Below the pieces are notes generated by a model that was not told the DNA's origin, did not search any database, and saw only the letters and a list, made by a program, of their open reading frames with translations. 32,000 nt of DNA. Origin: an uncultured Chloroflexia bacterium (GTDB lineage: Bacteria > Chloroflexota > Anaerolineae > Anaerolineales > Anaerolineaceae). Made by a program: the position numbers and the translations under genes. Shown here one piece after another: positions 1,951 through 17,370 of this stretch. The stretch spans positions 30,001 to 62,000 of the forward strand of contig OY969938.1 of the NCBI GenBank assembly GCA_963704755.1. Direction: 5' to 3'. Numbering within the stretch: position 1 is the first letter of the stretch; the number at the start of each line of letters is the position of its first letter.

Positions 1951-1960
1951 AAAAGTCACC

Positions 1961-2309
1961 TCAAGGTTTTTCGACGCCGATACTTTCCAGGTAGAATTCT
2001 TCTCCCTGGGTGATATTGACGCGCATAGATCCGCAATTCGGGCAGGGTTCGAGTTGGTCTGCTAGCTCGAATTCAGAAGTTGCAGTTTAAACAAACCATT
2101 TTGGCCGGCAGGCGGTTGAAATGCAGCTCGGCGCCCTGGCAAATGGTGTTTTCGGCCAGAATATCCCAATAGAATTGAACGGAATCATCGACAAAGCTGG
2201 ACAGTCGCCCGATGACAAGATAGATATCGGTGACGCGAGTAGCATCGGCCTGTTTTGCATGTTTCAAGGCCAGATCTAATAAAGATTCGGTTATCGCCAG
2301 TTCATGCAT
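1961..2309 (-). pseudogene. hypA: Hydrogenase nickel metallochaperone HypA, reading frame broken by an apparent 1-nt insertion at 2073-2075
   Basis: ORF 2073..2309 gives MHELAITESLLDLAL...MVCLNCNF then TGA. The next frame (2074 down to 1961) continues EFELADQLEPCPNCGSMRVNITQGEEFYLESIGVEKP*. Joined, they restore the HypA zinc site CxxC-x12/13-CxxC and the conserved C-terminus. Confidence 0.85.
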
Positions 2310-2375: not shown

Positions 2376-2867
2376 TCACTCAGCAATCACCTGTTCGGAG
2401 GAGTGGACGATTTGTTCCATTAGCTGTAATTTGAACATCAACAAGTTGCTGGCAACCACATTGGCCAGCCGCTTCATGATGACATAACCAACATGGCGAT
2501 CGCGATCGCAAAGTTCGTAAAGCTCGTCGCCATTGAGCACTAACAGGCGGGTATCCTTGACCGCGACTGCCGATGAGGTCCGCTGGCGGACAACCGGGGT
2601 CATGCGCGACCAGCCGATGATATCCAGGGGTTCGGCATAGTAAATGTGAACCTGGCCGCGAGAGGGTATGCTGGAAAAAAGATCTACCTCACCTGAAAGG
2701 ACTATATACACATTATCGATGCGATCCCCCTCGCAGAAGATCGTATCGTCTGGTTGCTTGGTTACGATTGCGGCAATATTCGCCAGGCTCTCGAGTTGCT
2801 TTTGATTAAACTCGAGGAACCAGGGAATACCTTTGAGTATTTCGATCAATTCAGTCTTATTATCCAT
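2376..2867 (-). CDS. Cyclic-nucleotide-binding (cNMP/Crp-type effector) domain protein with no DNA-binding domain
   Basis: The 163-aa ORF follows the cNMP beta-barrel pattern (FCEGDRIDNVYIVLSGEVDLF ... AEPLDIIGW ... RTSSAVAVKDTRLLVL). It ends after the C-helix with no HTH. Confidence 0.75.
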   Translation of the reverse strand: MDNKTELIEILKGIPWFLEFNQKQLESLANIAAIVTKQPDDTIFCEGDRIDNVYIVLSGEVDLFSSIPSRGQVHIYYAEPLDIIGWSRMTPVVRQRTSSAVAVKDTRLLVLNGDELYELCDRDRHVGYVIMKRLANVVASNLLMFKLQLMEQIVHSSEQVIAE

Positions 2868-3027
2868 GGTATACCACTACTTTCGATGCTATTGTTTTAA
2901 CATTCTTGGCGTCTCTATTGAAGTGTCCTCCGTCACAAACCGGCGGGGTCGATTGTCATCAAAATAATGAAATGTAAATAAGAGTTGTCATAATTCATTT
3001 CACAGGATGTTTCCCCCGACTTTGAAA

Positions 3028-4145
3028 GCCGGGCTACCGGTGGGCAGCGCCCGTTGGTGACCAAGGTCGCGGCAACAAAAACGCGAAGACCCACCTGCGT
3101 GGGTCTCTCTTTTGGCAGCGCCTGATTTCCTAGCCGGAGTTTTGCCCGGCGAGCTGATGAAGTGCCCTCCCCAGGCCCTCTCCCAGCGCCGGCCAAGCAA
3201 AACCCTGTCCACTGGATCATTTTTCACCGAAATTGAGCCCCACGCAGGTGGGGCTTCGTGGTTTTGTAGGTGCAGCTTTAGCTGCTGCGGGCCTGGGTAG
3301 AAACGCCGGCCTGGCTACCCCCCGGCTGGGCTACCGGCGGGCAGCGACCGTTGGCGACCAAGGCCGCGGCAACAAAAACACGAAGACCCACCTGCGTGGG
3401 TCTCTCTTTAGGCAGCGCCTGATTCCCTAGCCGGAATTTTGCCCGGCGAGCTGATGAAGTCCCTCCCCCCGGCCCGCTCCCAGCGCCGGCCAAGCAAAAT
3501 CCTGTCCACTGGATCGGTTTACACCGAAATGGAGTCCCACGCAGGTAGGGCTTCGTGGTTTTGTAGGTGCAGCTTTAGCTCCTACGGGCCTGGGTAGAAA
3601 CGCCGGCTGGGCTACCGGCGGGCAGCGCCCGTTGGCGACCAAGGTCGCGGCAACAAAAACACGAAGACCCACCTGCGTGGGTCTCTCTTTTGGCAGCGCC
3701 TGATTCCCTAGCCGGAATTTTGCCCGGCGAGCTGATGAAGTCCCTCCCCCCGGCCCGCTCCCAGCGCCGGCCAAGCAAAATCCTGTCCACTGGATCGGTT
3801 TACACCGAAATGGAGTCCCACGCAGGTAGGGCTTCGTGGTTTTGTAGGTGCAGCTTTAGCTCCTACGGGCCTGGGTAGAAACGCCGGCTGGGCTACCGGC
3901 GGGCAGCGCCCGTTGGCGACCAAGGTCGCGGCAACAAAAACACGAAGACCCACCTGCGTGGGTCTCTCTTTTGGCAGCGCCTGATTCCCTAGCCGGAATT
4001 TTCCCCGGCGAGCTGATGAAGTGCCCTCCCCCCGGCCCTCTCTCACCCTGGCCAAGCAAAACCCTGTCCACTGGATCGGTTTTCACCGAAATGGAGCCCC
4101 ACGAAGGTGGGGCTTCGTGGTTTTGTAGGTGCAGCTTTAGCTGCC
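3028..4145. repeat. Noncoding tandem array, about 3.9 copies of a 281-297 bp GC-rich, hairpin-dense unit
   Basis: The anchor GAAGACCCACCTGCGTGGGTCTC recurs at 3085, 3382, 3663 and 3944 (periods 297, 281, 281). Segment 3411-3721 is base-for-base identical to 3692-4002. ORFs called here occur on both strands, repeat with the unit, and are Gly/Arg/Pro-rich with no RBS. Confidence 0.92.
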
Positions 4146-4177
4146 GTTTGAAGGACGCAACTTGGATTTTGGACGGC

Positions 4178-4729
4178 TCATCTGGCCTGGATCCAGTCCA
4201 GAATACGGCCAGCTGCCTGCGGGACCAGGTCACGGGTTGCCGTCGAAAGCTCCTGCGAGAAGCCAAACTCGAACCCACGCACCGAAACGAGCACTGCCTG
4301 GGGGAGCTTGCCGTACAGGGATTGCACCAGCGACAGGCAGGTCTGGGGTGTCATATGGTGGGTAAAAGGCGAGTTGACGAATTCGGGACTGAGCCTTTCC
4401 AGGTTGACCAGTTGGTCCACCCGACCGGTGTGCGCGTCGATGAAGCACACCCGTTCGTAAGCCGAAAGCAGTTCAGCCTCTTCGGGCATGAGCTGGAGTG
4501 CGAATGCTGCGTCGATCCCAGCGGAGATCGTAACCAGGGGTTCATCCGGCTGTTCAGGCAGGCTGAACCCATAGGATTGGGCAACTGCCTGTAAGACGTG
4601 CCAGGCAACACCGTCGTCCTGGCGGTCAACGTTGCCGTAGCCCAACAACAAGACGCTTTTTGTTAAACCGGCATCTTCCGCAGGAAGATGCCGGTTTAAA
4701 CTTTCGTTGCCAGAATGATCAGTCATCAT
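4178..4729 (-). CDS. hoxW: [NiFe] hydrogenase maturation endopeptidase (HoxW/HyaD/HycI family)
   Basis: N-terminal LLLGYGNVDRQDDGVAWHV matches the GxGNxxxxDDGxG metal-binding motif. Downstream it has FIDAH and a THH(M) region. It overlaps the hoxH stop by 11 nt. Confidence 0.85.
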   Translation of the reverse strand: MMTDHSGNESLNRHLPAEDAGLTKSVLLLGYGNVDRQDDGVAWHVLQAVAQSYGFSLPEQPDEPLVTISAGIDAAFALQLMPEEAELLSAYERVCFIDAHTGRVDQLVNLERLSPEFVNSPFTHHMTPQTCLSLVQSLYGKLPQAVLVSVRGFEFGFSQELSTATRDLVPQAAGRILDWIQAR

Positions 4730-6152
4730 CCCGTGTAATCGTTTTGATCAGGTTTCCATCCGGGTCGAGCATCTCGACGACGATGGGCATTTGACCGACT
4801 GCATGGGTGGAGCAGGACAGGCAGGGGTCGTAAGCGCGTACGGCAGCTTCCACCCGGTTAAGCATACCTTCCTGGATATCTGGGCCGTGGACGTAGGTCT
4901 TGGCGACCGAATCGACCGCTTTGCTCATCGCCCAGTTGTTATTCCCGGTGGCCACAATCAAGTTCACCTTGGTGATCTGGCCATTTTCGTCAGCCCAATA
5001 GTGGTGCCAGAGGGTGCCGCGCGGGGCTTCAATCACACCCACGCCTTCGCCACGGATGTCCTGCCTGGTATTGAGCGTATCCTGGCTGAGGATATCGGGG
5101 TCGTCGAGCAGCACACGCACGTTTTCAGCAGCGTAGAGGGTTTCGATCAGCCTGGCATAGTGGTAGTACAGCGTGTTTTCAACCGGTTTGCCGCTGTTGA
5201 GGCCTTTGAAAATTTTCATTTCTTCTTCGGCCAGTGGGGTCGAAATGCTATCGCTGGCGTTCAAGCGGCCCAAGGGGCCTACGCGATACACCCCACCTGG
5301 GTAACCCAGTTTCTTGTAATAGGGGAATTTGAGGTACGACCAGCTCTCGACGTGCTCGGCGATGTAATCCAGGTAGTCGCGGCCATCGAAGCATTCCAAT
5401 TCCTGGCCGGCCTGGTCGATCAGGCGTACATTGCCATCGTACAGCTCCAGGCTGTTGCCTTCTTTGACCATGCCCAGGTAACCGGAGGGGAAGACGGCAA
5501 ACTTGTTGATGTCTTCCATATTCTTGGCAGCCCAGTCTTTCATGATGCCCAGGCCAGCTTGAATGGTGGCGATGGCTTCATCCAGACCGGAGAGAATATC
5601 ATCCCGTTCGGCCGGCTTCAAGGATTTGTTGACCCCACCCGGTACGGCAAAGGTCGGATGGATGCGGCGCCCGCCCAGGGTGTGGATAATTTCTTGTCCA
5701 AATTTGCGCAGGTTGACTGCTTTTAGCGTCAGTCCAGCGTTGGCCTGTACCAGACCGACCACGTTGCGGATGGCGGGGTCGGCGTCGAAGCCCAATAACA
5801 AATCAGGCCCGGCTAGCTCGAAGAAGTGCATGCCGTGGCTCTGGATGATCTGGCCCATGTGCATCAATTCACGCAGAAGTTGAGCCGGGCGGGGAGCGGG
5901 CATGCCCAACAATTCATCGCCAGCCTTGGCAGAAGCCAGGTGATGCGAAACCGGGCAAATTCCGCAAATACGCGGGGTGATATTGGGCATTTCGAAGACC
6001 ATACGGCCTTCGCAGAATTTCTCGAAGCCGCGGAACTCGTTGACGTGCAAGTAGGCGTGGTCCACGCTGCCGTCTTCAGCCATGTGGATGGTGACTTTGG
6101 CGTGACCTTCGATCCGGGTGACCGGTTCAATCGTAATTTTTTGGGTTGCCAT
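4719..6152 (-). CDS. hoxH: [NiFe] hydrogenase large (catalytic) subunit, group 3 / Hox-type
   Basis: N-terminal Ni-Fe ligand motif [13 protein letters not shown] and C-terminal DPCLSCSTH, followed by a 27-aa tail of the kind removed by the endopeptidase. The ORF track begins at TTG 6176, but ATG 6152 follows GGAGGG by 5 nt and does not overlap hoxY, so I prefer it. Confidence 0.93.
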
Positions 6153-6166
6153 TTTTCCCTCCACCA

Positions 6167-6709
6167 TTAATGCCAATCAAGTTTATCGTTCTTGATTTCC
6201 GGGATACGGCCCTGGGCCAATTCGGCCAGCACATAAAAAATTGTGTCGGCATCCGGCGGGCAGCCAGGGACGAAAACGTCCACCGGCACGACTTCGCTTA
6301 CGGCCCGTACTTTGGTCGGAACACACAGTTCGGGATCATCCGGAATTTTGCCTTCGGAGTCAGTGCTTTCGGTTTCAATATAAGCCCGCCGCAATGACTC
6401 TTCGAGGGTAAAGAAATTACGCATAGCCGGAACGCCACCGAAGACCGCACAGTCACCCAGGGCGACCAGGACCTTACAGTGTTTGCGCATGTTTTCGGCG
6501 ACTTCTTCGTTGTAGGTATTGTTGATGCCGCCTTCCAGAATGCCAACATCGACACCTGATTCATCCGGCCTTTTCAAATCTGTGATCGGGGTGGAGCGCA
6601 GGTCGGCCAGTTCGAGTACTTTGATAATTCGTTCGTCCATGTCCAATAAGGACATGTGACATCCCGAGCAGCCTGCCAACCAGTCCGAGGATACTTTTGG
6701 TTTAGTCAT
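6167..6709 (-). CDS. hoxY: [NiFe] hydrogenase small subunit (group 3, NuoB/20-kDa-like)
   Basis: MTKPKVSSDWLAGCSGCHMSLLDMDE... with further Cys ligands (GDCAVFGG, PGCPP). An AAGGAG RBS lies upstream of ATG 6709. Confidence 0.9.
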   Translation of the reverse strand: MTKPKVSSDWLAGCSGCHMSLLDMDERIIKVLELADLRSTPITDLKRPDESGVDVGILEGGINNTYNEEVAENMRKHCKVLVALGDCAVFGGVPAMRNFFTLEESLRRAYIETESTDSEGKIPDDPELCVPTKVRAVSEVVPVDVFVPGCPPDADTIFYVLAELAQGRIPEIKNDKLDWH

Positions 6710-6739
6710 TGATATTTCTCCTTATACCAGTACGAAAGC

Positions 6740-8692
6740 TCAGGCAGCGATCTCAACTGGAGATGGCTGTTTGCTTAATTCTGCTTGCCAATCCTCATCC
6801 AGGGCAATGCCTAACCGGCCGGCAATCTTTTCCAGCACAGTGCTGCTGGCTAGCACGGCTTCTGGAGCGGTCAGAGACGCCTGGGCGGCCTGGATACGGC
6901 CATCCATGCTTACATAATGGCCGGCCTGTTCCAGCCAGGATTGAACCGGCAGGACCACATCGGCCTGGGCGGTCAGTTTGGATACATGGCTGGCCTGGAC
7001 GACCAGGAAGGGTGCTTTTTCCAGGGTCTTGACCAGGCTCTCGCTGGGGGCTTCGTCGCCCAGGGCGACAAATGCGGCTTTATGGCCGTTGAGCTTGAAG
7101 GCTTTGTCGAGGCCGTACTGGGCGGCAGCGACACTGTTCGCCCCACCTTTGGGGTCGATCAGCGTGGCGCCGATGGTTTCGGCAAATTTGACCAGGGCCT
7201 GCAATGTGGCCAGGTCGTTGATCTTGGCCGGGTCGTAGATAACAACCGGGTTGCTGGTGTTGGCCAGCCGGAAGGCAGCCTCGAGCAGCAGGTCGGAGGA
7301 CACGCCGGATTTGGCAGCCGCCTCAGCAACAGCCGGGTCGGGCTCACCTTCAAAGGCGGCTTTATTCTGGCCTAATTTGGCCGCAGCAGCGGTCAGGCCG
7401 TTGACCAGGGTGGCTTCCTGCCCGGCTTTGGGGGTCAGGCCACAGTTCGTGAATTGGGTCAGATCGTTTTCCTGCGGGTCGACCACCACCAGGGTGATAT
7501 CGTTGGCCAACTTGCGGCGGATGAAGAAGCCGGTTACCTGGTGTTCGTTCATCAGGTCGGCGCCGAAGACGAGCACGCCGCCGGCGTTCTTGAGCGCATC
7601 CAGCTTGCCTTCGAAGGCTTTCCCGGTCTGGGCAGCCATTTCAGAAGTAATGTGGGTGTTGGAACCTTCTTCCAGGGAGGTAACCATATCCCCGGCCAGG
7701 CCGTCGGCAAAAATTTTCTTGAATGCGTAGAGCGATTCGGCCGGCAGGCGAGCGGAAGCCGTTGCGGCGACGCTGTGATCTTTCAGATGTTCGGCTACTG
7801 CGTCCAGGGCTTCATCCCAGGTAGTGGGGATCAAGGCGCCATCTTTGCGGACCATGGGGGAAAGGATGCGTTCGCGATCCTCACTCAGGGGGATGAAGCG
7901 ACCCTCTTTGCACAACAGGCCCTCGTTGACGGGAGCATCCCAATCGCCTTCGATGCGCACAACCTGCCCGTCACGGGTAAGCACGTCGATACCACAGCCG
8001 ACCGAACAGCCGACACACACGGTAAGGTTGTGCTCCACCTGGGTTTCCCTGCCACGGTAAGCTGAACGGCGGTCGATCAACGCGCCGGTGGGGCAGACCT
8101 GCACGCAGGTACCGCAGGATACACAGGAACTTTCACCCAGGGGCACGTTCAAGTCGGCGATGACGAAGGTCTTGGCGCCGCGCTCTTCAACGCCCAAGGT
8201 GTTGGCGCCGACCAGCTCGGAGCAGGCGCGGATGCAGCGCCGGCAGAGGATGCAGCGGTTGTGCTCCAGGATAAAGAACGGGTGGGAAGCATCCACCGGG
8301 TAGCGCTGCCAGTTAGGCTGTAAGTCCCAGTGGGTCATATCTTCATCGTAGGCCGCGTTTTGTAATTCGCAGTCGCCGCCGCTGACCTGGCAGTAAGGGC
8401 AGAAGTGATTGCGCTCGCTGAAGATCAGGGTCAAGACGAATTTGCGGGCCTTGTTAACTTTTTCGGTGGTGGTGTGAACCACCATGTTGTTGCTGACCGG
8501 GATCGTGCAGGCAGATTGCAGAGTCCGAAAACCGTCGATTTCGACCATACATAACCGGCAGCCCCCATACGGCGTCAGGTGCGGGTGGTCGCACAAGGTG
8601 GGGATATGAATACCGGCCTGTTGGGCTGCTCGTAAAACGGTGGTTCCTTCAGGTACCTCTAGATTTTTATTATCGATTGTGATGGTGACCAT
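6740..8692 (-). CDS. Fe-S electron-transfer subunit: HoxU/NuoG-like N-terminus fused to a molybdopterin-oxidoreductase-like domain
   Basis: From MVTITIDNKNLEVPEGTTVL: a 2Fe-2S motif (CDHPHLTPYGGCRLCMVEI), then CPYC/CELQ, then two ferredoxin 4Fe-4S motifs (CILCRRCIRAC; CVSCGTCVQVCP). Next comes a molybdopterin-oxidoreductase-type 4Fe-4S motif (CVGCSVGCGIDV...LCKEGRF) and about 370 further aa. The AAGGAGAG RBS precedes ATG 8692. The ORF-track start at 8839 would overlap the preceding gene. No H-cluster motifs (TSCCP, MPCxxK) are visible. Confidence 0.85.
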   Translation of the reverse strand: MVTITIDNKNLEVPEGTTVLRAAQQAGIHIPTLCDHPHLTPYGGCRLCMVEIDGFRTLQSACTIPVSNNMVVHTTTEKVNKARKFVLTLIFSERNHFCPYCQVSGGDCELQNAAYDEDMTHWDLQPNWQRYPVDASHPFFILEHNRCILCRRCIRACSELVGANTLGVEERGAKTFVIADLNVPLGESSCVSCGTCVQVCPTGALIDRRSAYRGRETQVEHNLTVCVGCSVGCGIDVLTRDGQVVRIEGDWDAPVNEGLLCKEGRFIPLSEDRERILSPMVRKDGALIPTTWDEALDAVAEHLKDHSVAATASARLPAESLYAFKKIFADGLAGDMVTSLEEGSNTHITSEMAAQTGKAFEGKLDALKNAGGVLVFGADLMNEHQVTGFFIRRKLANDITLVVVDPQENDLTQFTNCGLTPKAGQEATLVNGLTAAAAKLGQNKAAFEGEPDPAVAEAAAKSGVSSDLLLEAAFRLANTSNPVVIYDPAKINDLATLQALVKFAETIGATLIDPKGGANSVAAAQYGLDKAFKLNGHKAAFVALGDEAPSESLVKTLEKAPFLVVQASHVSKLTAQADVVLPVQSWLEQAGHYVSMDGRIQAAQASLTAPEAVLASSTVLEKIAGRLGIALDEDWQAELSKQPSPVEIAA

Positions 8693-8793
8693 TCCAATCA
8701 CTCTCCTTAGCGTATGGGGTTCTTGCACCAGCAAGTCATTTTTAATTTTTTTCTCAACCAGTGACCATCTTCGCCGGATGGCGCCAGGCTCGT

Positions 8794-10432
8794 TTATGCG
8801 TGGACCGGCTGCGCAATTTTGCACACACCGGTTGGGCAAACATGCAGGCGGATATGGGCTTCAACCTCTGCCCGGAAGTAATTCAAGATGTCTCGCAACG
8901 GCGTACCGGCCGACTGGCCCAGGCCGCAATTGGAGAGCTGATACAGGTTATCCGAGAGCTCGGCCAACTGGTCCAAATCGTGCAATGTAGCGCTGCCTGA
9001 GGCAATATTGGTTAATATCTCGTATGCGCGCTGAGTACCGATCCGGCAGGGGTTGCATTTCCCGCAAGATTCGGTGCGGAAGAAGTTCAGCAATACCCGG
9101 GCGAGATCGACCACACAATTATTCTCGTCGCAGATCAACATGGCGCCCGAACCGAGCGAGACGCCGGCTTTGCTGAAGGAGTCGAAGTCCATCGGGGTAT
9201 CCTGGAGTGAGGCGGGAATTATCGAACCGCTCGAACCGCCGGTCTGGGCCATCTTGAAAGAAACCCCGTCTTTCATCCCTTTGGCGTAAATCGCGATGAC
9301 TTCGCGTAAGGTGATGCCCATGGGGACCTCGATCAGGCCGGTTACGTTGACGTTGCCCAATACGGTGTAAACTTTGGTCCCCGGGCTGCTGGGCGTACCA
9401 AAACTACGGAACCAGTTGGCGCCGTTGTTGATAATGGCGGGAATATTGGCCAGGGTCTCGACGTTATTGATCAGGGTGGGTTTGTTCCACAGGCCGTTAG
9501 TGGTGGGGAAAGGTGGACGAGAGCGGGGTTGGCCGCGCTTGCCTTCGATCGACTCGATCAGGGCAGTTTCCTCGCCGCAGATGTAAGCGCCGGCGCCACT
9601 GTGGACGTGCAGTTCGAAGTTGAACCCGCTGTTGAAAATATTTTCGCCCAGGAAACCCATTTCCTTGGCTTGCAGGATGGCCCGGTTCAACCTTTCCTGG
9701 GCTAAAACATATTCGCCGCGGATGTAAATATAACCTTCATCAGCACCGACCGTATAGCCGGCCAGGGTAATCGCTTCGATAATGGCGTGCGGATCGCCTT
9801 CCAGGATCAGGCGGTCTTTGAACGTGCCGGGCTCGGATTTCATCGGCGTTACACAGGACGTATTTCTTGTCCGATTTTTCACGGGCGACGAAACTCCACT
9901 TCAAGCCGGTCGGGAAGCCGGCTCCACCGCGGCCACGCAGCCCGGAGGATTTGATCTCTTCCTGCACCTGTGCCGGTGTCATTTCGGTCAAGGCTTTGCC
10001 GAGGGCCTGGTAACCTTCGTGCAAAATGTAATCTTCGATTTCGTTCGGGTCGATGATGCCGGCCCGGCGCAGGACGATCCGCTGCTCGGCCGGGAGGGTG
10101 CCTTTACGCGCGGACAGCCAGGCGATGTTACCGGATAACTCGCGGATAGACGCCTTCAGGTCTTCGGCGACACGACCTTTGTAGAGGTGTTCTTCGACCA
10201 GGTAAGGGACTTTATCTGGCGTGACCGGCCCGTAGATGACGGCTTCCGGGTACACAATGACGATGGGCAGTGCATCATGGCGGCCAACATCGCCGATCAT
10301 GGACAGTGAAATTTCATCTTCCAGGCCGAAAGCTTTGATCTCTTCCTGGAGTTTATCGAAGACCTCTTGGGCACCCCGCTGCATCGAGATCGGGTCACTG
10401 GATACCAATACCATGGATCGTACGGTTTTCAT
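8794..10432 (-). pseudogene. hoxF: NAD(P)H-binding flavoprotein HoxF/NuoF-like, frame broken by an apparent extra A in an AAA run (plus-strand TTT 9838-9840)
   Basis: ORF 9740..10432 reads ...[18 protein letters not shown]...KYVLCNADE, then goes out of frame. ORF 8794..9882 picks up at [17 protein letters not shown]...ESCGKCNPCRIG...SNCGLGQS. Deleting one base gives the canonical [14 protein letters not shown] junction and a protein of about 545 aa. Confidence 0.85.
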
Positions 10433-10444
10433 TAGTCTCCCTCC

Positions 10445-10924
10445 CTACTCATAATTTCCCAGGATTTCTGAGACTTTCTTGGGATCGACATTGCCATAAA
10501 TATCATCGTCGATGATGATTACCGGGCCAACGCCGCACACACCCAGGCAACTGGTGGTGATCAAAGTCCATTTTCCATCCTGGCTGGTTTCACCGGATTG
10601 CAAATCGAGCTGTTCGCTGAGGCTTTCCCACACCTCGCGGCCGCCAACGACATGACATGGGGCACTTTCACAAAACTGAATCACGTGCCGGCCACGGGGT
10701 TTGGTGGACAGCATGTGGTAAAAACTGGCAACGGAGAACAGGCTGCTCTTGGGTTCACGCAGCCGTCGGCTGATTTCAGACAAGGCTTGTTCAGGAAGGT
10801 AGCCAAGCGAGCGGTTGACATCGTTCAAGATGGGGATCAACTCATCGCGGGTGGCACCATGACGATCAACCGCCGCACCGACAACTTCGTTGATCTTTTC
10901 TTCTTTGGTTGCTGTTACTGCCAT
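10445..10924 (-). CDS. hoxE: NuoE/HoxE-like 2Fe-2S thioredoxin-fold subunit (copy 2)
   Basis: The 159-aa ORF has the NuoE cluster pattern: FCESAPCHVVG ... TTSCLGVCGVGPVIIID. Confidence 0.85.
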   Translation of the reverse strand: MAVTATKEEKINEVVGAAVDRHGATRDELIPILNDVNRSLGYLPEQALSEISRRLREPKSSLFSVASFYHMLSTKPRGRHVIQFCESAPCHVVGGREVWESLSEQLDLQSGETSQDGKWTLITTSCLGVCGVGPVIIIDDDIYGNVDPKKVSEILGNYE

Positions 10925-10986
10925 ACTGGTTCTCCTTTTGGTTTCATTTTGGCCAGTCCGGTTTGGCTGGAGAAATCACTGCCGGG

Positions 10987-12768
10987 TTAGCAAATGTCGA
11001 TCGCGTTGAAATTGCAGACCTGCATACAAATGCCACAGCGGATGCATACGTCGGGGTCGATCGTATGAGTTTGGCGGCGTTCACCGGAGATAGCACCCAC
11101 GGGGCAATTACGCGCACAGACAGTACAGCCGGTGCACGGCTCGGGCTGAATTTCATAGCGGATCAACGCTTTACAGACTTTGGCGGGACAACGCTTTTCG
11201 TAAATATGGGCTTCGTATTCTTCGCGGAAATATTTGAGGATGCTGACGACCGGATTGGGTGCACCCTGGCCGAGCCCACAGAGACTGTTTTGGCTGATTT
11301 CGGCACACAGGTCTTCCAACAGCTCAATGTCTCCATCCTGGCCTTTACCGTCGCATATACGGGTCAGAATTTCCAGAAGTCGGCGGGTGCCCACCCGGCA
11401 GGGTGTGCATTTCCCACAACTCTCATCCTGGGTAAATTCCATGAAGAAACGGGCGATATCGACCATGCACGTATCTTCATCCATAACAATCATACCGCCA
11501 GAACCCATCATCGTGCCGGCTTTTTTGAGCGATTCGTAATCAATGGGCAGGTCCAGATATTCTTCGGGAACACAGCCGCCCATCGGGCCGCCAATCTGGA
11601 CCGCTTTGAATTTCTTATCGTTCTTGATGCCGCCTCCGACGTCGTAGATCACATCCCGCAGGCTGATTCCCAGGGGAACCTCGATCAACCCGGGGCGGTT
11701 CAAATCGCCGGCCAGGGCAAAAGTCTTGGTGCCTTTACTGGTTTCGGTACCCCATTGCGAGTACCATTCTGCACCGTTGAGGATAATCTGGCGAATATTG
11801 GCGTAGGTTTCGACGTTATTGACGTTGGTGGGTTTGCCCCACAGGCCCGAAACGGCCGGGAAAGGCGGCCTGGGACGCGGCTCACCGCGCCGGCCTTCGA
11901 TCGAGCTGATAAGGGCCGTTTCTTCGCCGCAAACAAATGCGCCGGCGCCCATACGTACTTCCAAATCGAAATCGAAACCGGTACCGAAGATATTCTTACC
12001 GAGTAAGCCCAGCGCGCGGGCCTGTTGGATGGCAATATTCAGGGTGGATACCGCGATAGGATATTCGGCGCGGCAGTAGATATAGCCCTGGTGGGCGCCA
12101 ATGGCAAAGGCGGCGATAGTCATCCCTTCCAATACCGAATGGGGATCGCCTTCGAGCACCCGCCGGTTCATGAACGCGCCCGGGTCGCCTTCATCGGCGT
12201 TGCAGATAACGTATTTGATCGGGCTGTTACTTTGTTTGGCTAATTGCCACTTTTTGCCGGTAGGAAAACCTGCGCCGCCACGCCCGCGCAGGCCAGATTT
12301 CAAGACCGTATCGACCACTTCATCCGGCGTCATGCCGGTCAAGACTTTGGCCAGGGCCTGGTAACCATCATCGGCGATGTAATCTTCGATATTGGTTGGG
12401 TCGATTTTGCCGCAGTTTTTCAGCACAACGCGAACCTCTTTGGCGGTCGGCGCGCGCAATTCTTCATCTTGCGATATTGTCTTTCTTTGTTCGAACTTTT
12501 TTACCGGGCGGCCTTTGAGGAAATGTTCTTCTACCAGGTAAGGCATATCATCCGGGGTCATGCCAACGTAATGAATTCCCTCGGGATAGACCATCATTTC
12601 AGGTCCATCCGCGCAACCGCCAATCCTGGATGTTTCGAGAACCTGAACTTCGTCGATTAAACCTTCCTGGACCAGTTCGTCCTGCAAGGCGTCCATCATT
12701 TCGTGAGCGCCCTTTGCCAGGCATTCTGGATCAACACAAACCAATACGTGAGAGCGGAAATACTTCAT
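10987..12768 (-). CDS. NuoF-like FMN/NAD(H) flavoprotein with a C-terminal 2x[4Fe-4S] ferredoxin domain (HydB/HndC type)
   Basis: [30 protein letters not shown] and ESCGKCTPCRVG...SLCGLGQG. The C-terminus has CTGCTVCARNCP and CIRCGICMQVC. The N-terminal thioredoxin-like domain retains three Cys. Confidence 0.9.
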   Translation of the reverse strand: MKYFRSHVLVCVDPECLAKGAHEMMDALQDELVQEGLIDEVQVLETSRIGGCADGPEMMVYPEGIHYVGMTPDDMPYLVEEHFLKGRPVKKFEQRKTISQDEELRAPTAKEVRVVLKNCGKIDPTNIEDYIADDGYQALAKVLTGMTPDEVVDTVLKSGLRGRGGAGFPTGKKWQLAKQSNSPIKYVICNADEGDPGAFMNRRVLEGDPHSVLEGMTIAAFAIGAHQGYIYCRAEYPIAVSTLNIAIQQARALGLLGKNIFGTGFDFDLEVRMGAGAFVCGEETALISSIEGRRGEPRPRPPFPAVSGLWGKPTNVNNVETYANIRQIILNGAEWYSQWGTETSKGTKTFALAGDLNRPGLIEVPLGISLRDVIYDVGGGIKNDKKFKAVQIGGPMGGCVPEEYLDLPIDYESLKKAGTMMGSGGMIVMDEDTCMVDIARFFMEFTQDESCGKCTPCRVGTRRLLEILTRICDGKGQDGDIELLEDLCAEISQNSLCGLGQGAPNPVVSILKYFREEYEAHIYEKRCPAKVCKALIRYEIQPEPCTGCTVCARNCPVGAISGERRQTHTIDPDVCIRCGICMQVCNFNAIDIC

Positions 12769-12815
12769 ATTTTTTAGCCTATGGCGATAATGTCCGAGGA
12801 AATTCCCAGGGACAA

Positions 12816-13184
12816 TTAGATCTGGATCATGTTCTCGGTTAACGGTTTCCCTTTAACCACGTGCTCGTTGACAATCTGGCGGGCGACTTCCGCGTTGACT
12901 TTACCGTAGGTCACTTTGGGCTGCTCACCAACGACTACCTGGACGATCGGTTCTTTTTCACACAGGCCAATGCAACCGGTCTGGGTTACAACAACTCCTT
13001 CCAGGTTATCTTCCTGGATGGTATCCAAAATCGCTTTCATTGCATCACGAGCGCCGGCTGCGATACCGCAGGTACCCATACCAACAATGATCTGGATCTG
13101 ACCGGATTCGGTCTTTACCTTGCGTTTTTCCAATGCTTCTTCGCGAATTCTCTTGAGATCGTCCAAACTTTTGATTGTAGGCAT
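12816..13184 (-). CDS. Thioredoxin-like 2Fe-2S ferredoxin (HydD/HndB-like)
   Basis: The 122-aa ORF has GMGTCGIAAGA ... TGCIGLCEKEPIV, the pattern of small 2Fe-2S subunits found in multimeric hydrogenase clusters. Confidence 0.8.
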   Translation of the reverse strand: MPTIKSLDDLKRIREEALEKRKVKTESGQIQIIVGMGTCGIAAGARDAMKAILDTIQEDNLEGVVVTQTGCIGLCEKEPIVQVVVGEQPKVTYGKVNAEVARQIVNEHVVKGKPLTENMIQI

Positions 13185-13222
13185 TTTTGACTCTCCTGTC
13201 TGTTTATTCTGGAAGAGGTGGC

Positions 13223-13777
13223 TTATGAAATGGGTTCAGCCTGGAGGGAGTGAATCCCTTCTTTGATCAATTCGTTCAAAAACTTCAAGACGAAGGGCTC
13301 GGTCAAGGAAATTCCATCCAATTCCTCTTTGAGCGGTTCGTCGTCGAAAACAAATTCTTGCTGGTTGAATCGGTAGCGGAAAATCCAATGGACAGCCGGG
13401 TTTGCGACCAACAGGGTGATGAGGGTGTCGCCCAGATTACCCATCGGCATGCGGTCGATATGGCTGCGTTGAAATTCCACTTCGAGCAGGGTGCCTTTGC
13501 CGGGAGCCGATTCGATTTTTAAGCTGCCGTTACATGCTTCAGCGGCTTCTTTGAGTAGCGGTATCCCAAGACCGACTTTGCGCGTCGTTCGGCTGGTGAC
13601 AAAAGGATCCACCACTTTTGCGACGGTTTCTGCATCCATCCCCTTGCCATCATCTTGCACGCTCATATAGAGGCGGTCTGTTTGGGTATCTTCAATGACG
13701 GTAATTTGTACAGTCGCAGCCTGAGCGGCGATGCTGTTTTCGGCGATATCGAGCAGATGGAGCGATAGCTCTCTCAA
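13223..13777 (-). CDS. Stand-alone GHKL/histidine-kinase-like ATPase domain protein
   Basis: N-box LLDIAENSI, G1 DDGKGMD and G2 KVGLGIPLL. No HisKA or dimerisation domain. Its start overlaps the nuoE-like stop by 4 nt. Confidence 0.75.
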   Translation of the reverse strand: MRELSLHLLDIAENSIAAQAATVQITVIEDTQTDRLYMSVQDDGKGMDAETVAKVVDPFVTSRTTRKVGLGIPLLKEAAEACNGSLKIESAPGKGTLLEVEFQRSHIDRMPMGNLGDTLITLLVANPAVHWIFRYRFNQQEFVFDDEPLKEELDGISLTEPFVLKFLNELIKEGIHSLQAEPIS

Positions 13778-14286
13778 GCAGTCCCCTGCACTTTCCGGAG
13801 CACCTGGGGTAGTTTGTTTGGCCGGACGCGACCGACCGATTCTTCATCCACGACGACTACTGGGGCCTGGCTGCAAGCGCCGACACAGCGGCAGATTTCC
13901 ATGGTGATTTCGCCATCCGCTGTGGTCTGTCCGGGTTCGATCCCCAGAATCGTTTTGGCTTTTTCGATCAACTGAGGCGTCCCACCCACATAACAGGCCG
14001 TGCCCATGCAGAACTTGACTACATGTTTTCCGCGCGGGGTGGTGGTGAAAAACGAGTAGAACGATACGACCCCATGCACTGAACTTGCCGGTACATGGAG
14101 CTGTTCTGCTACGTATTGTTGCATAGCGGGAGAGATAAAACCAATCTGGCTTTGCAGTTCGTTGAGGATGACCATGGTGGAACCAGATTTACTTCTATTA
14201 TTTTCCAATATCTGGTCGATAATTTTTTTCTGATCTGGATTGGCCAGCGGATCGTTGGCTGGTATCTTTATTTTTGGAAGGGCCAT
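13774..14286 (-). CDS. NuoE-like 2Fe-2S subunit (copy 1; HydC/HndA-like)
   Basis: The 170-aa ORF has FCMGTACYVGG ... ICRCVGACSQAPVVVVD. Confidence 0.88.
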   Translation of the reverse strand: MALPKIKIPANDPLANPDQKKIIDQILENNRSKSGSTMVILNELQSQIGFISPAMQQYVAEQLHVPASSVHGVVSFYSFFTTTPRGKHVVKFCMGTACYVGGTPQLIEKAKTILGIEPGQTTADGEITMEICRCVGACSQAPVVVVDEESVGRVRPNKLPQVLRKVQGTA

Positions 14287-14397
14287 GAATTTACTCCGCT
14301 AATAAATTGGATGGATTTGGTGCAATTATCCTGTTCCTATCATTGAAAAGTTTAACCATATAGGCGATCCGAAGTAATTGCCAAATGTCATGGTTTA

Positions 14398-14415
14398 TTG
14401 TGAAAGTAATAACAA
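14398..14415. promoter_or_regulatory. Candidate Rex-type operator (TTGTGAA-AGTA-ATAACAA)
   Basis: The left half-site matches the Rex consensus TTGTGAA-N4-TTCACAA perfectly; the right half matches 5/7. It lies in the only sizeable gap (143 bp) of the long minus-strand operon, next to a possible minus-strand promoter (TTGGCA at 14379-14384, 16 nt spacer, TATATG at 14357-14362). Confidence 0.3.
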
Positions 14416-14429
14416 TCGGTTGATGCCGC

Positions 14430-15191
14430 CTAAATTGTCTCGGATTGCGTCTGAGACAGCTCGCGATAAGACCGCCCATCTGCATGCCGGAGGGCCAGGC
14501 GGATTTCAGCGATTGTGGGATTTTCGATCGAAAACAGGTTCGCCCCACGGAGTTCGTTCAAGCGATGGGCGTCGCCATCCTGAATCAGGGGAAAACCTTC
14601 CAATTGGGGGAAGACATGGGCTGCCTGGGATGGTTTGAGGTGGCGTGATATCTCCAGGGCTTCCCAGGGAATGTCCGCCGGGACGAAACCCAGCAATGGA
14701 ATCAGACCATTGGCTTTACGGTCCACGTGGGCGGGAATGAACAAACCACCCAGGTCGTTGACCTGGCGCCAGGCTTCTTCGAGAGATAGGTCGGCCGAGG
14801 TTAGCAGCAGCCGCTCTTCACGGGCGACGAAGTCTCCGTTTTGATCGACAAATAACTGGTCGCCAAAATAGTCGGCCCGATTTTTCTGATCGGGCAGTTT
14901 TTGATCGACGATGGCTTGCCAGGTACGGGCCTGGTCCAGGCTGTCGAAAAGGCACAGCGAGTGGACTTCTTCGCGGGTCTGAATTTCCATGCCGGGTAAA
15001 ACGGTCAGGCCGGTACCCTGGGCGGCCTGCATGACGGCCTGGGCGTTCCCGCTGGCGTTGTGGTCGGTAATGGCGAGAACCTGGATACCAAGATCCAATG
15101 CTTCCATGACGATCAGCGGTGGGAGCATTTCAATTTCAGCGCAGGGAGAAAGTACAGTATGGACGTGGAGTTCTGCTCGGAAGGTTTTCAC
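14430..15191 (-). CDS. PHP (polymerase/histidinol-phosphatase) family metal-dependent phosphoesterase
   Basis: LHVHTVLSPCA ... LAITDHN ... IPAHVDR ... DGDAH, the His/Asp metal-ligand pattern of PHP domains. GTG start preceded by AGGAGGAG. Confidence 0.8.
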   Translation of the reverse strand: MKTFRAELHVHTVLSPCAEIEMLPPLIVMEALDLGIQVLAITDHNASGNAQAVMQAAQGTGLTVLPGMEIQTREEVHSLCLFDSLDQARTWQAIVDQKLPDQKNRADYFGDQLFVDQNGDFVAREERLLLTSADLSLEEAWRQVNDLGGLFIPAHVDRKANGLIPLLGFVPADIPWEALEISRHLKPSQAAHVFPQLEGFPLIQDGDAHRLNELRGANLFSIENPTIAEIRLALRHADGRSYRELSQTQSETI

Positions 15192-15210
15192 CCTGCCTGC
15201 GCTCCTCCTG

Positions 15211-15549
15211 TCATCGTAATCCTAACTCCCATAATTTACCCGCAACGACAAAGGTTGGCTCCGAGGTCGATAGGAGGGTGATACCTTCACTGTTGGCTTT
15301 TTCTATGGTGGGTTGTTCGGGTTGGGCGTTCTCGGTGATAATCACGGCGGCCAGTTCAAGCAGGGCTGCCACGGCAACGATATTATTGTGGGCTTGTAAG
15401 GTGACCCAAAGCCCGTTGTGGCAGGCTCCGGTCATAACGCAGCTCAATAAATCTGCGGCGTACCCTCCGGCTGGAGAAATTGTGGAAAAATCTTTTGGTT
15501 CCGTTAATACTTTGAGGTTCAAAGCTCGGATTACATCGGCCAGATTCAT
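15211..15549 (-). CDS. DRTGG-domain protein (copy 2)
   Basis: The internal ATG at 15549 (MNLADVIRALNLKVL...) follows AGGAGG and sits just after the upstream stop; the ORF-track start at 15675 would overlap that gene. The layout (...AADLLSCVM...VTLQAHNNIVAVAAL...AAVIITE...GITLLSTSEPTF) fits my recollection of the DRTGG fold. Not searched. Confidence 0.6.
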   Translation of the reverse strand: MNLADVIRALNLKVLTEPKDFSTISPAGGYAADLLSCVMTGACHNGLWVTLQAHNNIVAVAALLELAAVIITENAQPEQPTIEKANSEGITLLSTSEPTFVVAGKLWELGLR

Positions 15550-15560
15550 CAAATTTCCTC

Positions 15561-16553
15561 CTAGTTCTTGGTCTGAGATCTTTCGCCTACCGTATCTTCC
15601 TTGTCCAAATTCATTTTCATTTGCAGGCGAGTGCCTTTCCCTAATATCGATTCGAGCTTCATTACATCCACGCAACGGTTGATATTCGCCAGGCCCATCC
15701 CGGCTCCAAACCCTAACTCGCGAACTTTTTCGGGTGCAGTTGAATAGCCCGGGCGCATAGCCAGTTCTACATTTTCGATGCCCGGCCCGGAATCGTAAAC
15801 GTCGATCGAAATCTGGTGCGGTTCAATTTCCACCCGGATGACACCCCCCTCGGTGGTATGGATGATCAGGTTCATCTCCGCTTCATAGACGGCGATACCG
15901 CAGCGGCGAGCAATCTGGGGATTGGCCCCCATGCGGGTTAGCGCGCGTTTGATCTTGGAAGAGGCCTCTCCGCCATGGGCGAAATCGCCGGATTTGACGT
16001 GATAGCGCATAATCAAGCTGGTCCGTTCCGATTCGATATCTTCGAACAGGTGACTGGCGCGATACCGGCGAACTTCCTCGGTCTGGTAATCCTTTTCCAG
16101 GGCTTTCAGGATGCCGTTGGTAATATCGCCCTTGGTGATAATGCCTAACAGATCCCCATTTTTATCCAGCACCGGCAGCCGGCCGACCTGGGTATCGGCG
16201 AAGACCTTCAGCGCTTCGACGACCGGATCGGAGTAGAGAATCGTGAAAAGATTGCAGCTCATATATTTTTGAATGTCCGAATCCAGGTCGTTACTGACCA
16301 GGCAGCGGATCAAGTCTTCGATGCTGATGACGCCGATCAGCTTGCCATCTGCGACGATCGGTGCTCCCGAGATGCGCGCCTGGCGGAAACGTTCCAGTAC
16401 CGCAGACATTTTGGTATCAGCCGACATACTGATGATGTTGCGGCTCATGACCTCGTGAACTTTTATCTCGTAAGCAAGTTCTTCTACCCGAGTAATATTT
16501 TCGGCTTCTTCGTCGGTTATGATCCTGGATTTACTTGGTTTTTGCTGGTCCAT
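15561..16553 (-). CDS. CBS-pair + HATPase_c protein (RsbW/SpoIIAB-like serine kinase/anti-sigma type)
   Basis: Two CBS repeats (VHEVMSRNIISMS...GAPIVADGKLIGVISIEDL; ...GRLPVLDKNGDLLGIITKGDI). A GHKL ATPase core follows (EAEMNLIIHT, DSGPGI, GFGAGMGLANI). Confidence 0.8.
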   Translation of the reverse strand: MDQQKPSKSRIITDEEAENITRVEELAYEIKVHEVMSRNIISMSADTKMSAVLERFRQARISGAPIVADGKLIGVISIEDLIRCLVSNDLDSDIQKYMSCNLFTILYSDPVVEALKVFADTQVGRLPVLDKNGDLLGIITKGDITNGILKALEKDYQTEEVRRYRASHLFEDIESERTSLIMRYHVKSGDFAHGGEASSKIKRALTRMGANPQIARRCGIAVYEAEMNLIIHTTEGGVIRVEIEPHQISIDVYDSGPGIENVELAMRPGYSTAPEKVRELGFGAGMGLANINRCVDVMKLESILGKGTRLQMKMNLDKEDTVGERSQTKN

Positions 16554-16587
16554 TGATTTCCCTGACTGGAAGCATTAAGAAGAACCT

Positions 16588-16866
16588 TTATTCGCAAGAA
16601 CAATCGCCATCAACGACGGGCTTTTCCATACACTGTATGCCGGCCTGGTACAATTTTCCACAAGCCTCAAACATACCAAAAGGGGTACCGATCAAGGGTA
16701 CTCCTTCCTGGTCGGCCAGGTCGATGGTTTCACGAGGCGGCGTTTTTCCGCGCACCAGAACAATCGCGGTGATATCGGCCATTTGGGCCGTGCGGATGAC
16801 CTGCGGGTTGCACAAACCGGTCAATAGAACGGCCTCGGGTTGGAGGGAGGCCAAAACATCACTCAT
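16588..16866 (-). CDS. DRTGG-domain protein (copy 1)
   Basis: The 92-aa ORF reads AVLLTGLCNPQVIRTAQMADITAIVLVRGKTPPRETIDLADQEGVPLIGTPFGMFEA. It is the first gene after the 500-bp AT-rich divergent intergenic region. Confidence 0.6.
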   Translation of the reverse strand: MSDVLASLQPEAVLLTGLCNPQVIRTAQMADITAIVLVRGKTPPRETIDLADQEGVPLIGTPFGMFEACGKLYQAGIQCMEKPVVDGDCSCE

Positions 16867-17370
16867 CAGGTCAGCTCCACCACAACCGTTGACCTCTTGA
16901 TCAAGAGTGGCGTTCGTGTTCAGAAGTTTTCCATTGATTAATCGAATGAGGTCATTAAGATTTCATGTCGTTTGCCTGCAAATCAAGCGGGATCTCCCCG
17001 GAATTTTACTGTTTTATAAAATAAGATAAAAAGTTATCTCATGAGTGGTTTTTAGAATCGCCTCATCGCAAAAAAACCAGACCCATAAGCACTCTTCACT
17101 TTGTCGGATTTAATCGCAATTCGCCATATAAGAACTTAACATAATCCCCCGAATCCGGTAAGTGGATAAAATCATAATCTCAAGGTCAATTGTCATCATT
17201 TGAGGGTTGACCATTCAATTTATTCTGAATAGGGTATTCCCTGCCTGTTTTTCTGGCCGGATCTTGCAAATGGCCGTTCATCGCTCCAGAAATTGCGCAT
17301 AGCAAATTGAGGCGGGGATAGATTAACGTGTTAAAATCAGAATGATTAATCCCACCGAGCAGGAATCGTT

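Follow-up and report, generated by a model that had tools for sequence, protein, structure and literature searches.

The 32-kb window analysed here (the whole stretch of 32,000 nucleotides, taken from contig OY969938.1 of an uncultured Anaerolineae bacterium) contains fourteen genes that follow one another on the minus strand from about position 16966 down to 4178. Judged from its sequence, this region is a conserved soluble [NiFe] hydrogenase operon of the Anaerolineae (Chloroflexota), with a core homologous to the NiFe-HydABCSL hydrogenase of Acetomicrobium mobile. The genes were assigned by open reading frame (ORF) calling combined with Pfam and NCBIfam scans over the window, and their order and domains agree with those described in a first-pass annotation of the same DNA. 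In the direction of transcription, a DRTGG-domain gene, a CBS-GHKL gene, a second DRTGG-domain gene and a PHP-family gene come first, followed by hydC, a stand-alone GHKL ATPase gene, hydD, hydB, a second pair of NuoE- and NuoF-type genes (here called nuoE2 and nuoF2), hydA, hydS, hydL and hydP; a divergent histidyl-tRNA synthetase gene lies upstream of the operon. The locus is very probably a HydABCSL-type operon that holds, in addition, a pair of the non-bifurcating type.

All five subunits of the A. mobile enzyme, HydA, HydB, HydC, HydS and HydL, have a homologous counterpart encoded in the operon, which bears out the proposal of the first-pass annotation that the intact NuoE, the 593-residue NuoF, the NuoG-like protein and the [NiFe] pair correspond to NiFe-HydABCSL. 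In searches of the PDB, the best matches of HydL, HydB and HydA were chains D, B and A of the A. mobile structure 7T2R (Table 1). For HydL the next matches were MvhA (group 3c, 425 bits) and HoxH of 5XF9 (group 3d, 420 bits), and the best NCBIfam match was VhuA (456 bits, below the cut-off). HydL has both the N-terminal RxCGxCxxxH motif and the C-terminal DPCxxCxxH motif, the latter reading DPCLSCSTH in translation and being followed by an extension of 27 residues. HydC is closest to the HydC chains 7Q4V_C and 7T2R_C (125 bits against the latter). HydA, in which Pfam recognises Fer2_4, NADH-G_4Fe-4S_3, Fer4, Molybdop_Fe4S4 and molybdopterin-like domains and NCBIfam recognises NuoG (343 bits), matches 7T2R_A with 293 bits in its N-terminal half; its C-terminal half shows weak similarity to 7T2R_A, NuoG and FdhA, and this weak C-terminal match to 7T2R_A ruled out the idea that its architecture there is unlike that of A. 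mobile HydA. In A. mobile the genes for the five subunits, HydD, HisK and the protease have contiguous locus tags (PMC8880783). Their order, HydC-HisK-HydD-HydB-HydA-HydS-HydL-HydP, recurs in the window except that nuoE2 and nuoF2 separate hydB from hydA, and the stand-alone GHKL ATPase gene occupies the position of A. mobile HisK and of Caldanaerobacter Tte0891 (PMC8880783, PMC4694547).

The operon genes lie on a single strand, with gaps of 62 nt between hydB and nuoE2, 12 nt between nuoE2 and nuoF2 and 101 nt between nuoF2 and hydA. No terminator-like site was found on the operon strand in any gap between operon genes, which, as far as the DNA itself can tell, speaks against the transcript break that had been considered between the upstream genes and the hydrogenase genes. 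The only noncoding terminator-like hairpins on this strand are the four in the repeats beyond hydP, and the repeat array is the likely end of the transcription unit. Its copies are GC-rich and 86-100% identical; each hairpin (GAGACCCACGCAGGTGGGTCTT) is followed by a run of T, and the other strand has a mirror hairpin. The 281-nt repeat had no Rfam match, and its hairpin occurs in 0 of 165 fetched loci. Neither an [FeFe] HydA gene nor an FdhA gene was found within the 32-kb window, and a misassembly, which had been considered as a way in which an adjacent HydA gene could have been missed, is ruled out by synteny conserved in >50 genomes. Among the upstream genes, the one for the CBS-GHKL protein is conserved across related loci; its product scored 59 bits, under the cut-off, against NCBIfam spIIAB and is presumed to be a sensor or regulator.

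Table 1. Features of the hydrogenase region, with positions in the window.
Feature	Position	Strand	Evidence and remarks
DRTGG-domain protein 1	16588-16966	-	Pfam PF07085; longest intact ORF 16588-16866, 92 residues
CBS x2 + GHKL (HATPase_c) protein, related to SpoIIAB-type Ser kinases	15561-16553	-	Pfam CBS 1.2e-27, HATPase_c
DRTGG-domain protein 2	15211-15549	-	Pfam PF07085; relatives 112-118 residues
PHP-family phosphoesterase	14430-15191	-	Pfam PF02811; position conserved in relatives
HydC (BfuC/NuoE-like, [2Fe-2S])	13774-14286	-	Pfam 2Fe-2S_thioredx 9e-46
Stand-alone GHKL ATPase	13223-13777	-	Pfam HATPase_c 1.3e-15
HydD, HndB-like thioredoxin-like 2Fe-2S ferredoxin, 122 residues	12816-13184	-	weak Pfam and NCBIfam 2Fe-2S ferredoxin matches
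HydB (BfuB), 593 residues; N-terminal thioredoxin-like domain and C-terminal 2x[4Fe-4S]	10987-12768	-	7T2R_B, 841 bits
NuoE2, NuoE/BfuC-like [2Fe-2S]	10445-10924	-	Pfam 1.1e-43; best PDB match 7T2R_C, 137 bits
NuoF2, 545 residues once the extra A is dropped	8794-10432	-	overlapping ORFs 9740-10432 and 8794-9882
HydA-like NuoG-type Fe-S subunit, 650 residues from the conserved start, no H-cluster	6740-8692	-	Pfam
HydS, [NiFe] small subunit, short form, 180 residues	6167-6709	-	Pfam Oxidored_q6 1.5e-30; NCBIfam VhuG-like
HydL, [NiFe] large subunit	4719-6167	-	7T2R_D, 595 bits; both metal-binding motifs
HydP, hydrogenase maturation endopeptidase	4178-4729	-	TIGR00072, 53.8 bits (cut-off 47.45); adjoins hydL
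281-nt repeat, four tandem copies	3025-4164	.	one terminator-like hairpin per copy, operon strand
Cyclic-nucleotide-monophosphate-binding protein	2376-2867	-	Pfam PF00027; between protease gene and hypA in many relatives
HypA (Ni insertion), frameshifted	1967-2309	-	+1 insertion near 2070-2075
HypB	1279-1959	-	Pfam cobW; intact
HypF, N-terminal 427 residues	2-1282	-	intact; tblastn 77.5% over 427 residues, one frame

The plus strand of the window between 19334 and 31345 holds a housekeeping block, the scanned genes of which have full-length Pfam matches: a hybrid response-regulator/histidine kinase, an OmpR-type regulator, mreB, mreC, PBP2, minC, minD, minE, rodA and a 503-residue ORF, with mreD likely to be present as well.

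The HydB of the window groups with bifurcating enzymes by its cluster ligands, its signature residues and its place in a tree of NuoF-type proteins, as the first-pass annotation had expected of the 593-residue NuoF. Ligands were located by alignment with A. mobile HydB, following the list of Schut et al. (2022; PMC9304861). The B1 [4Fe-4S] cluster has its four cysteines (C451, C454, C457 and C497), B2 all five of its ligands (C434, C472, H521, C527 and C532), and B3 and B4 their eight C-terminal cysteines (from C545 to C585). Residues that divide bifurcating from non-bifurcating proteins were those of Losey et al. (2020; PMC7311640), read from an alignment of 47 HydB and 61 NuoF2 sequences drawn from the fetched loci. 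In that scheme bifurcating proteins have A or E together with M near the NADH site, F near FMN, and GGPSG, whereas non-bifurcating ones have T or S together with K, S or A, then Y, and no GGPSG. The HydB orthologues have the C-terminal ferredoxin domain, with each of its eight cysteines retained in 41-47 of the 47, and every one of them carries AFM at the NADH site and F at the flavin mononucleotide (FMN) site. The glycine motif is GGPMG in the window and GGP(M/A/L)G in the family, where the signature of Losey et al. is GGPSG.

NuoF2 is 46-52% identical to HydB and differs from it at each of these sites: TFK, Y and GGSSG occur in 61 of 61 NuoF2 sequences and never in HydB (AFM, F and GGP in 47 of 47), so that the split is absolute. 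None of the 61 NuoF2 orthologues has the C-terminal ferredoxin domain or any of the N-terminal cluster cysteines; the N-terminal thioredoxin-like domain is free of cysteine, with Ser/Ser at the first two cluster positions. These absences had been described correctly in the first reading of the DNA, as had the frameshift discussed below. NuoF2 thus shows every non-bifurcating character of Losey et al., namely the T, the K and the Y, a missing GGPSG and fewer iron-sulphur domains. Its best PDB matches are BfuB chains, with A. mobile HydB at 608 bits and complex I NuoF at about 400; the solved FdsB proteins score 384 and 326 bits, and the alignment with that of Cupriavidus necator (6VW7_B) extends over the full length, N-terminal domain included. 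In a neighbour-joining tree built on 411 core columns, NuoF2 is monophyletic (100 of 100) and falls with proteins of non-bifurcating motif, outside the bifurcating clade that holds HydB, with weak support at deeper nodes (57 and 40 of 100). The motifs and the tree contradict the notion, prompted by the BfuB matches, that NuoF2 is a recent duplicate of HydB or a truncated BfuB. Nor does the pair represent a classical HoxEF diaphorase, as had been suggested: the N-terminal cluster of HoxF and its AFM/F/GGPSG residues are missing, the 60 best PDB matches of NuoF2 do not include HoxF of 5XF9, and the adjoining HydA is a 650-residue protein. By these characters NuoF2 is an old paralogue of the non-bifurcating type and not a HoxF of the classical kind or a HydB copy in decay.

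The nuoF2 gene is interrupted by a single extra A at 9838-9840 (GATGAAATCCGAG, where relatives have GATGAATCCGA or GATGAAAGCGA). Its two ORFs match successive stretches of HydB (46% and 52% identity) with the junction between NADE and SEPGTF, and the break corresponds to position 37 of 150 in the FMN-binding domain profile. Removal of the extra A yields a 545-residue protein whose identity to an intact protein of 545 residues is 87% across the full length. NuoF2 is intact in all 60 orthologues from related loci; its best 120 database matches comprise 116 proteins of 543-550 residues and four slightly shorter ones, with no split version among them, and its conservation equals that of the neighbouring genes. 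A similar lesion affects the gene for DRTGG-domain protein 1, in which the conserved start codon (ATG, 16966-16964) is followed by an extra A at 16961-16963 that brings a stop after three codons; the 33 residues at the N-terminus show in-frame homology but lie behind this stop (ATGAATCTC in the closest relative, ATGAAATCTT in the window). The third case is hypA, with one extra base between the two cysteine pairs (AACTTCTGAATTC). The remaining operon genes, hypB, the 427-residue part of hypF and about 12 genes in the right half of the window are intact.

The insertions in the DRTGG gene (16959-16966) and in nuoF2 (9836-9843) both turn ATGAATC into ATGAAATC, an 8-mer with only these two occurrences on the minus strand of the window. 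For independent insertions the chance of sharing it is about 1 in 1000 by a rough estimate, and the fact that two of the three insertions share it therefore indicates a context-specific error process; the sites suggest either such an error or a mutational hot spot. A systematic error at GANTC motifs does not account for everything, as 56 GAATC and two ATGAATC sites are unaltered and the context in hypA differs, and an excess of frameshifts among the genes of the hydrogenase half (three of about 19, against none of about 12 in the rest of the window) involves too few genes for significance. In the closest relative (L001, ENA contig_60227, 605 kb) the HydS gene is in two pieces and the HydL gene in several (L001:13723-15715), a fragmentation typical of indel-rich long-read assembly. 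We lean somewhat towards assembly errors, rather than real and very recent lesions, as the source of the three insertions in the window. Since the DRTGG gene and hypA carry similar +1 insertions, either of these is likelier than an evolutionary loss of NuoF2; the frameshift is not a mark of a lineage that is shedding the gene, and it is silent on long-term loss.

The distribution of the two pairs was examined by a scan with HydL of one genome per GTDB species, which retrieved 425 related stretches. The best 80 were annotated by tblastn and blastp with the window proteins and with FocA, FdhA and HypA from a Thermanaerothrix locus, and 60 of them had enough upstream sequence to be informative. 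Going by their titles, seventy-nine of the best 80 belong to Chloroflexota/Anaerolineae, and one is titled 'uncultured bacterium'; the top match is a Bellilinea metagenome-assembled genome (84% identity), and the named database matches of NuoF2 are all from Anaerolineaceae (Bellilinea, Anaerolinea, Thermanaerothrix and Levilinea). The source of the window is a relative of Bellilinea; its own species is missing from the collection scanned, and exact-sequence look-ups of HydL (with two alternative starts) and of HydB returned no record. Both pairs stand in tandem in 51 of the 60 informative loci, exactly as in the window in 43 of these 51, with FocA-FdhA between NuoF2 and HydA in six (Bellilinea caldifistulae included) and with FocA alone there in two. 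This arrangement, syntenic in dozens of genomes, is far beyond chance.

In four further loci (L009, L011, L014 and L024) the operon that starts beside the histidyl-tRNA synthetase gene reads HydD-NuoE2-NuoF2-HydA-HydS-HydL-HydP, without HydC, HisK and HydB, and the metagenome contig L088 has the same organization. NuoE2/NuoF2 can therefore be the sole flavoprotein pair encoded beside the core, and HydD is kept even there. Only one of the 60 loci has HydB types alone, and four have no flavoprotein gene upstream of HydA. Because A. mobile has only HydBC and these other loci have only NuoE2/NuoF2, either pair can be found without the other. Immediately downstream of NuoF2 there is always either HydA or FocA-FdhA-HydA. 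About ten further loci carry, after the protease gene, an FdhA that has no flavoprotein genes with it, and four (L040, L077, L083 and L066) have a HydC'-HydB'-FdhA set downstream of hydP, apparently a formate dehydrogenase of the bifurcating type. Some operons also encode a HydB of about 1000 residues that has bifurcating motifs and is fused to a GltD/NfnB-like pyridine-nucleotide oxidoreductase half (L023:1-2955, L037:2472-5558, L084:4367-7414, L096:4511-7528 and L099); in L023 this protein, a normal HydB and NuoE2/NuoF2 make three flavoproteins in series. Given these varied arrangements of the pairs and of FdhA, the locus is a modular kit with two NuoG-like acceptors (HydA leading to the [NiFe] site, FdhA to formate) and two kinds of flavoprotein donor.

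A comparable layout is found with [FeFe] hydrogenases. The closest relative of NuoF2 outside the Anaerolineae in a library clustered at 50% (P0123) has TFK, Y and GGTAG and a cysteine-less N-terminus. It is encoded in L084, where the order is a HisK-like gene, HydD, NuoE, a GltD-fused HydB of about 1015 residues with bifurcating motifs, a NuoE2-like gene, P0123 and [FeFe] HydA. A metagenome scan with P0123 retrieved two more contigs, L087 and L096, in which tandem bifurcating-type and non-bifurcating pairs lie directly before [FeFe] HydA and a DRTGG/HATPase/DRTGG(/PHP) block lies upstream. The tandem design is thus tied neither to [NiFe] nor to formate dehydrogenase. A plain DRTGG...HisK-HydD-HydB-[FeFe]HydA-HydC cluster occurs in L090; a 495-residue ORF there (L090:4381-5868), located between the HATPase gene and the second DRTGG gene and weakly similar to [FeFe] HydA, may be a sensory hydrogenase of the HydS type. 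Together with the natural order hydC-tte0891-hydD-hydB-hydA of Caldanaerobacter (PMC4694547), contigs L090, L096 and L087 confirm the statement in the first-pass annotation that such an accessory block precedes [FeFe] HydA.

The likeliest reading, to which we give close to an even chance, is that NuoE2/NuoF2 and HydC/HydB are alternative NADH-input modules on one [NiFe] core and hence give rise to two isoenzymes. In such a scheme HydC and HydB would form a flavoprotein module linked to NAD(H) and ferredoxin, HydA would act as an iron-sulphur wire, and HydS and HydL would hold the catalytic [NiFe] site, with HydP, HypA, HypB and HypF maturing the enzyme. HydC/HydB joined to HydA-HydS-HydL would make a confurcating/bifurcating enzyme of the A. 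mobile kind, one that forms H2 from NADH and reduced ferredoxin and would be needed as H2 accumulates. NuoE2/NuoF2 joined to the same HydA-HydS-HydL would make an enzyme driven by NADH alone, comparable to the non-bifurcating hydrogenases known from syntrophs, forming H2 from NADH in a reaction feasible at the low H2 pressure of syntrophic growth. In syntrophs, HydB homologues of the non-bifurcating kind, which have no B3 and B4 clusters, produce H2 with NADH as the sole donor, and only when the H2 pressure is very low (PMC7311640; PMC11406978). The solved A. mobile enzyme is a dimer of pentamers in which HydBC is the only flavoprotein pair, and its HydA offers one route to the flavoprotein (PMC8880783); the two pairs of the window would compete for, or be assigned to, a single flavoprotein docking site of HydA. 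The products of the DRTGG/CBS-GHKL/DRTGG/PHP genes and the stand-alone GHKL ATPase are, from their co-location, candidate sensors or regulators of the choice of module.

Several points weigh against this scheme. Docking of either pair onto HydA is predicted from homology and gene order, and the presence of FocA-FdhA directly after NuoF2 in seven related loci fits a role in formate dehydrogenation. The assignment of HydB as bifurcating is made uncertain by the N-terminal [2Fe-2S] cluster B5, which belongs to the 'invariant core' of bifurcating enzymes (Schut et al. 2022): only three of its four cysteines are found in the window (C11, C16 and C52), with Arg in place of the third Cys of A. mobile, and the B5 positions vary among the 47 orthologues (Cys in 26 and Ser in 18 at position 11; Cys in 29 and Pro in 14 at position 52). 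The non-bifurcating assignment of NuoF2 meets two objections. Four of the five B2 ligands of A. mobile are retained in it, including the His that Schut et al. (PMC9304861) describe as absent from non-bifurcating homologues; however, many representatives with non-bifurcating motifs carry B2-type His and Cys ligands, which for this reason have no diagnostic weight and were rejected as a sign of bifurcation. In addition, HoxF of Synechocystis bifurcates without a C-terminal ferredoxin domain, with AFM/F/GGPSG (2026 Synechocystis Hox preprint), so the loss of this domain is in itself no proof of a non-bifurcating role. Finally, if the three frameshifts are real, the strain may be without any working hydrogenase, because HypA would be broken.

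The alternative that survives best, although we regard it as unlikely, is that NuoE2/NuoF2 is an FdsG/FdsB-like diaphorase which came with an inserted fdsG-fdsB-focA-fdsA cassette, the FocA-FdhA part having been lost or moved here so that the pair serves an FdhA elsewhere. The order NuoE2-NuoF2-FocA-FdhA-HydA, which is that of fdsGBA, is found in the loci of six GTDB species and in the Thermanaerothrix contig L002, among them L012 (B. caldifistulae) and L033 (Thermanaerothrix), and the lone FdhA after the protease gene in about ten others can be read in the same way, as can the architecture that NuoF2 shares with C. necator FdsB and the agreement of its motifs with the NADH-dependent formate dehydrogenases of Losey et al. 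(PMC7311640). Yet in most loci with the tandem pairs no FdhA lies within 10 kb, and NuoE2/NuoF2 are still 66-87% identical there, and the four species and L088 in which NuoE2/NuoF2 is the sole pair have no FdhA in the locus. Related non-bifurcating pairs stand directly upstream of [FeFe] HydA in L084, L087 and L096, NuoF2 scores far higher against A. mobile HydB than against solved FdsB, and in L040, L077 and L083 it is an extra HydC'/HydB' pair that accompanies FdhA.

Somewhat less probable still is a single larger complex containing both pairs, with NuoE2/NuoF2 as a second nucleotide site (for NADPH or NADH) that would link three or four redox pools. The tight packing of the genes on one strand with terminator-free gaps would suit such a complex, mixed oligomers are conceivable from the dimer of pentamers in A. 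mobile, and the third, GltD-fused HydB of L023 and L037 (also of L084, L096 and L099) shows that modules can be stacked. Against it, each pair is found alone with a complete core, in the class with only NuoE2/NuoF2 and in A. mobile, and the solved HydA has its one flavoprotein route. The remaining proposal, a bifurcating [NiFe] hydrogenase that is losing a classical HoxEF through a decaying gene, is very improbable: the frameshift does interrupt the FMN-binding domain, and the +1 insertions in two further genes would allow for decay of the locus in this strain, but NuoF2 is not HoxF-like, is otherwise as well preserved as its neighbours and whole in every orthologue and database match inspected, is the only flavoprotein in four species, and shares the sequence of its insertion with one of the other two.

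Anaerobic digesters, sediments and the subsurface count the Anaerolineae among their most abundant fermenters, and the growth of many of them is best in the company of partners that consume hydrogen. The main soluble hydrogenase of this class is seen here to be related to the one bifurcating [NiFe] enzyme whose structure has been solved, and a family previously listed for six Synergistetes and a few haloarchaea extends to at least 51 Anaerolineae species. Should the two pairs alternate on one core, the cell could switch with H2 pressure between a ferredoxin-coupled, energy-conserving mode and an NADH-driven mode; the pairs would then also be matched natural modules, bifurcating and non-bifurcating, for learning what makes a NuoF-type flavoprotein bifurcate. 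Tentatively, and expecting it rather to fail than to hold, we extend the model of alternative modules to a 'two-gear' hydrogenase in which one core, [NiFe] in Anaerolineae and [FeFe] in other lineages, takes two interchangeable modules and the CBS/DRTGG/GHKL/PHP set selects or tunes the module by H2 pressure or energy charge; this would be a general design for fermenters whose growth is at times free-living and at times syntrophic. The model of alternative modules is open to direct testing in three cultured strains: Bellilinea caldifistulae GOMI-1 and Thermanaerothrix daxensis, which combine the tandem pairs with formate dehydrogenase, and Levilinea saccharolytica KIBI-1, in which formate dehydrogenase lies downstream of the tandem operon.

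The tandem operon is ordinary for its lineage and has in part been annotated before. A survey of Chloroflexi assigns loci of this kind to group 3d and shows them surrounded by diaphorase, nqoF-like, hndB, nqoG, CBS and formate dehydrogenase genes (bioRxiv 10.1101/2021.08.23.457424), and an earlier paper merely notes a NiFe hydrogenase cluster in Anaerolineae. In the open-access papers searched we found no description of a link between Anaerolineae and HydABCSL, of a split of the two flavoproteins into bifurcating and non-bifurcating types or of tandem modules before [FeFe] HydA, and nothing relevant on DRTGG proteins with hydrogenases or on two diaphorase, NuoF or HydB modules. For annotation, these findings concern loci now labelled 'group 3d Hox' or 'NuoF', and the frameshift should not be taken as gene loss.

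Compared with the A. mobile NiFe-HydABCSL enzyme (Feng et al. 2022; 7T2R/7T30), the window has the five homologous subunits and also the HisK-like, HydD and protease genes, and the two HydB proteins have the B1-B4 ligands in common, including the all-Cys/His B2 set. The differences are that the A. mobile tags Anamo_1675-1678 and 1681 leave no room for a second NuoE/NuoF pair (PMC8880783), that the window operon is preceded by the DRTGG/CBS-GHKL/DRTGG/PHP block, a comparison that covers the window side only, and that the host belongs to the Chloroflexota, whereas Schut et al. list NiFe-Bfu only for Synergistetes (six members) and Halorhabdus. With the [FeFe] cluster of Caldanaerobacter the window has an identical order of HydC, GHKL ATPase, HydD and HydB (PMC4694547), and the [FeFe] HydA of that cluster is replaced by the NuoG-like HydA and the [NiFe] pair.

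HoxEFUYH (group 3d), too, is soluble, NAD-linked and of the [NiFe] type, and it has partners that resemble NuoE, NuoF and NuoG. Its distinguishing traits, an N-terminal [2Fe-2S] cluster in HoxF, the AFM/F/GGPSG residues and a short HoxU, are absent from NuoE2/NuoF2 and HydA: HoxU has about 240 residues against the 650 of HydA, of which the first 210 or so match the HoxU model, and HydL scores higher against its A. mobile counterpart (595 bits) than against HoxH of 5XF9 (420 bits). The FdsGBA formate dehydrogenase is paralleled, as fdsG-fdsB-fdsA, by the NuoE2-NuoF2-(FocA)-FdhA order of seven related loci, where FdhA adjoins NuoF2; the window itself has no FdhA, and NuoF2 is closer to BfuB (608 bits) than to FdsB (384 bits). 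By residue class NuoF2 resembles the non-bifurcating, NADH-dependent multimeric hydrogenases Syntrophomonas wolfei Hyd1ABC and Syntrophus aciditrophicus HydAB (Losey et al. 2017, 2020), in which B3 and B4 are likewise absent. In these syntroph enzymes the catalytic partner is [FeFe], whereas that of the window is [NiFe], and unlike them NuoF2 stands in tandem with a bifurcating-type module, has a cysteine-less N-terminal thioredoxin-like domain and carries four B2-type ligands.

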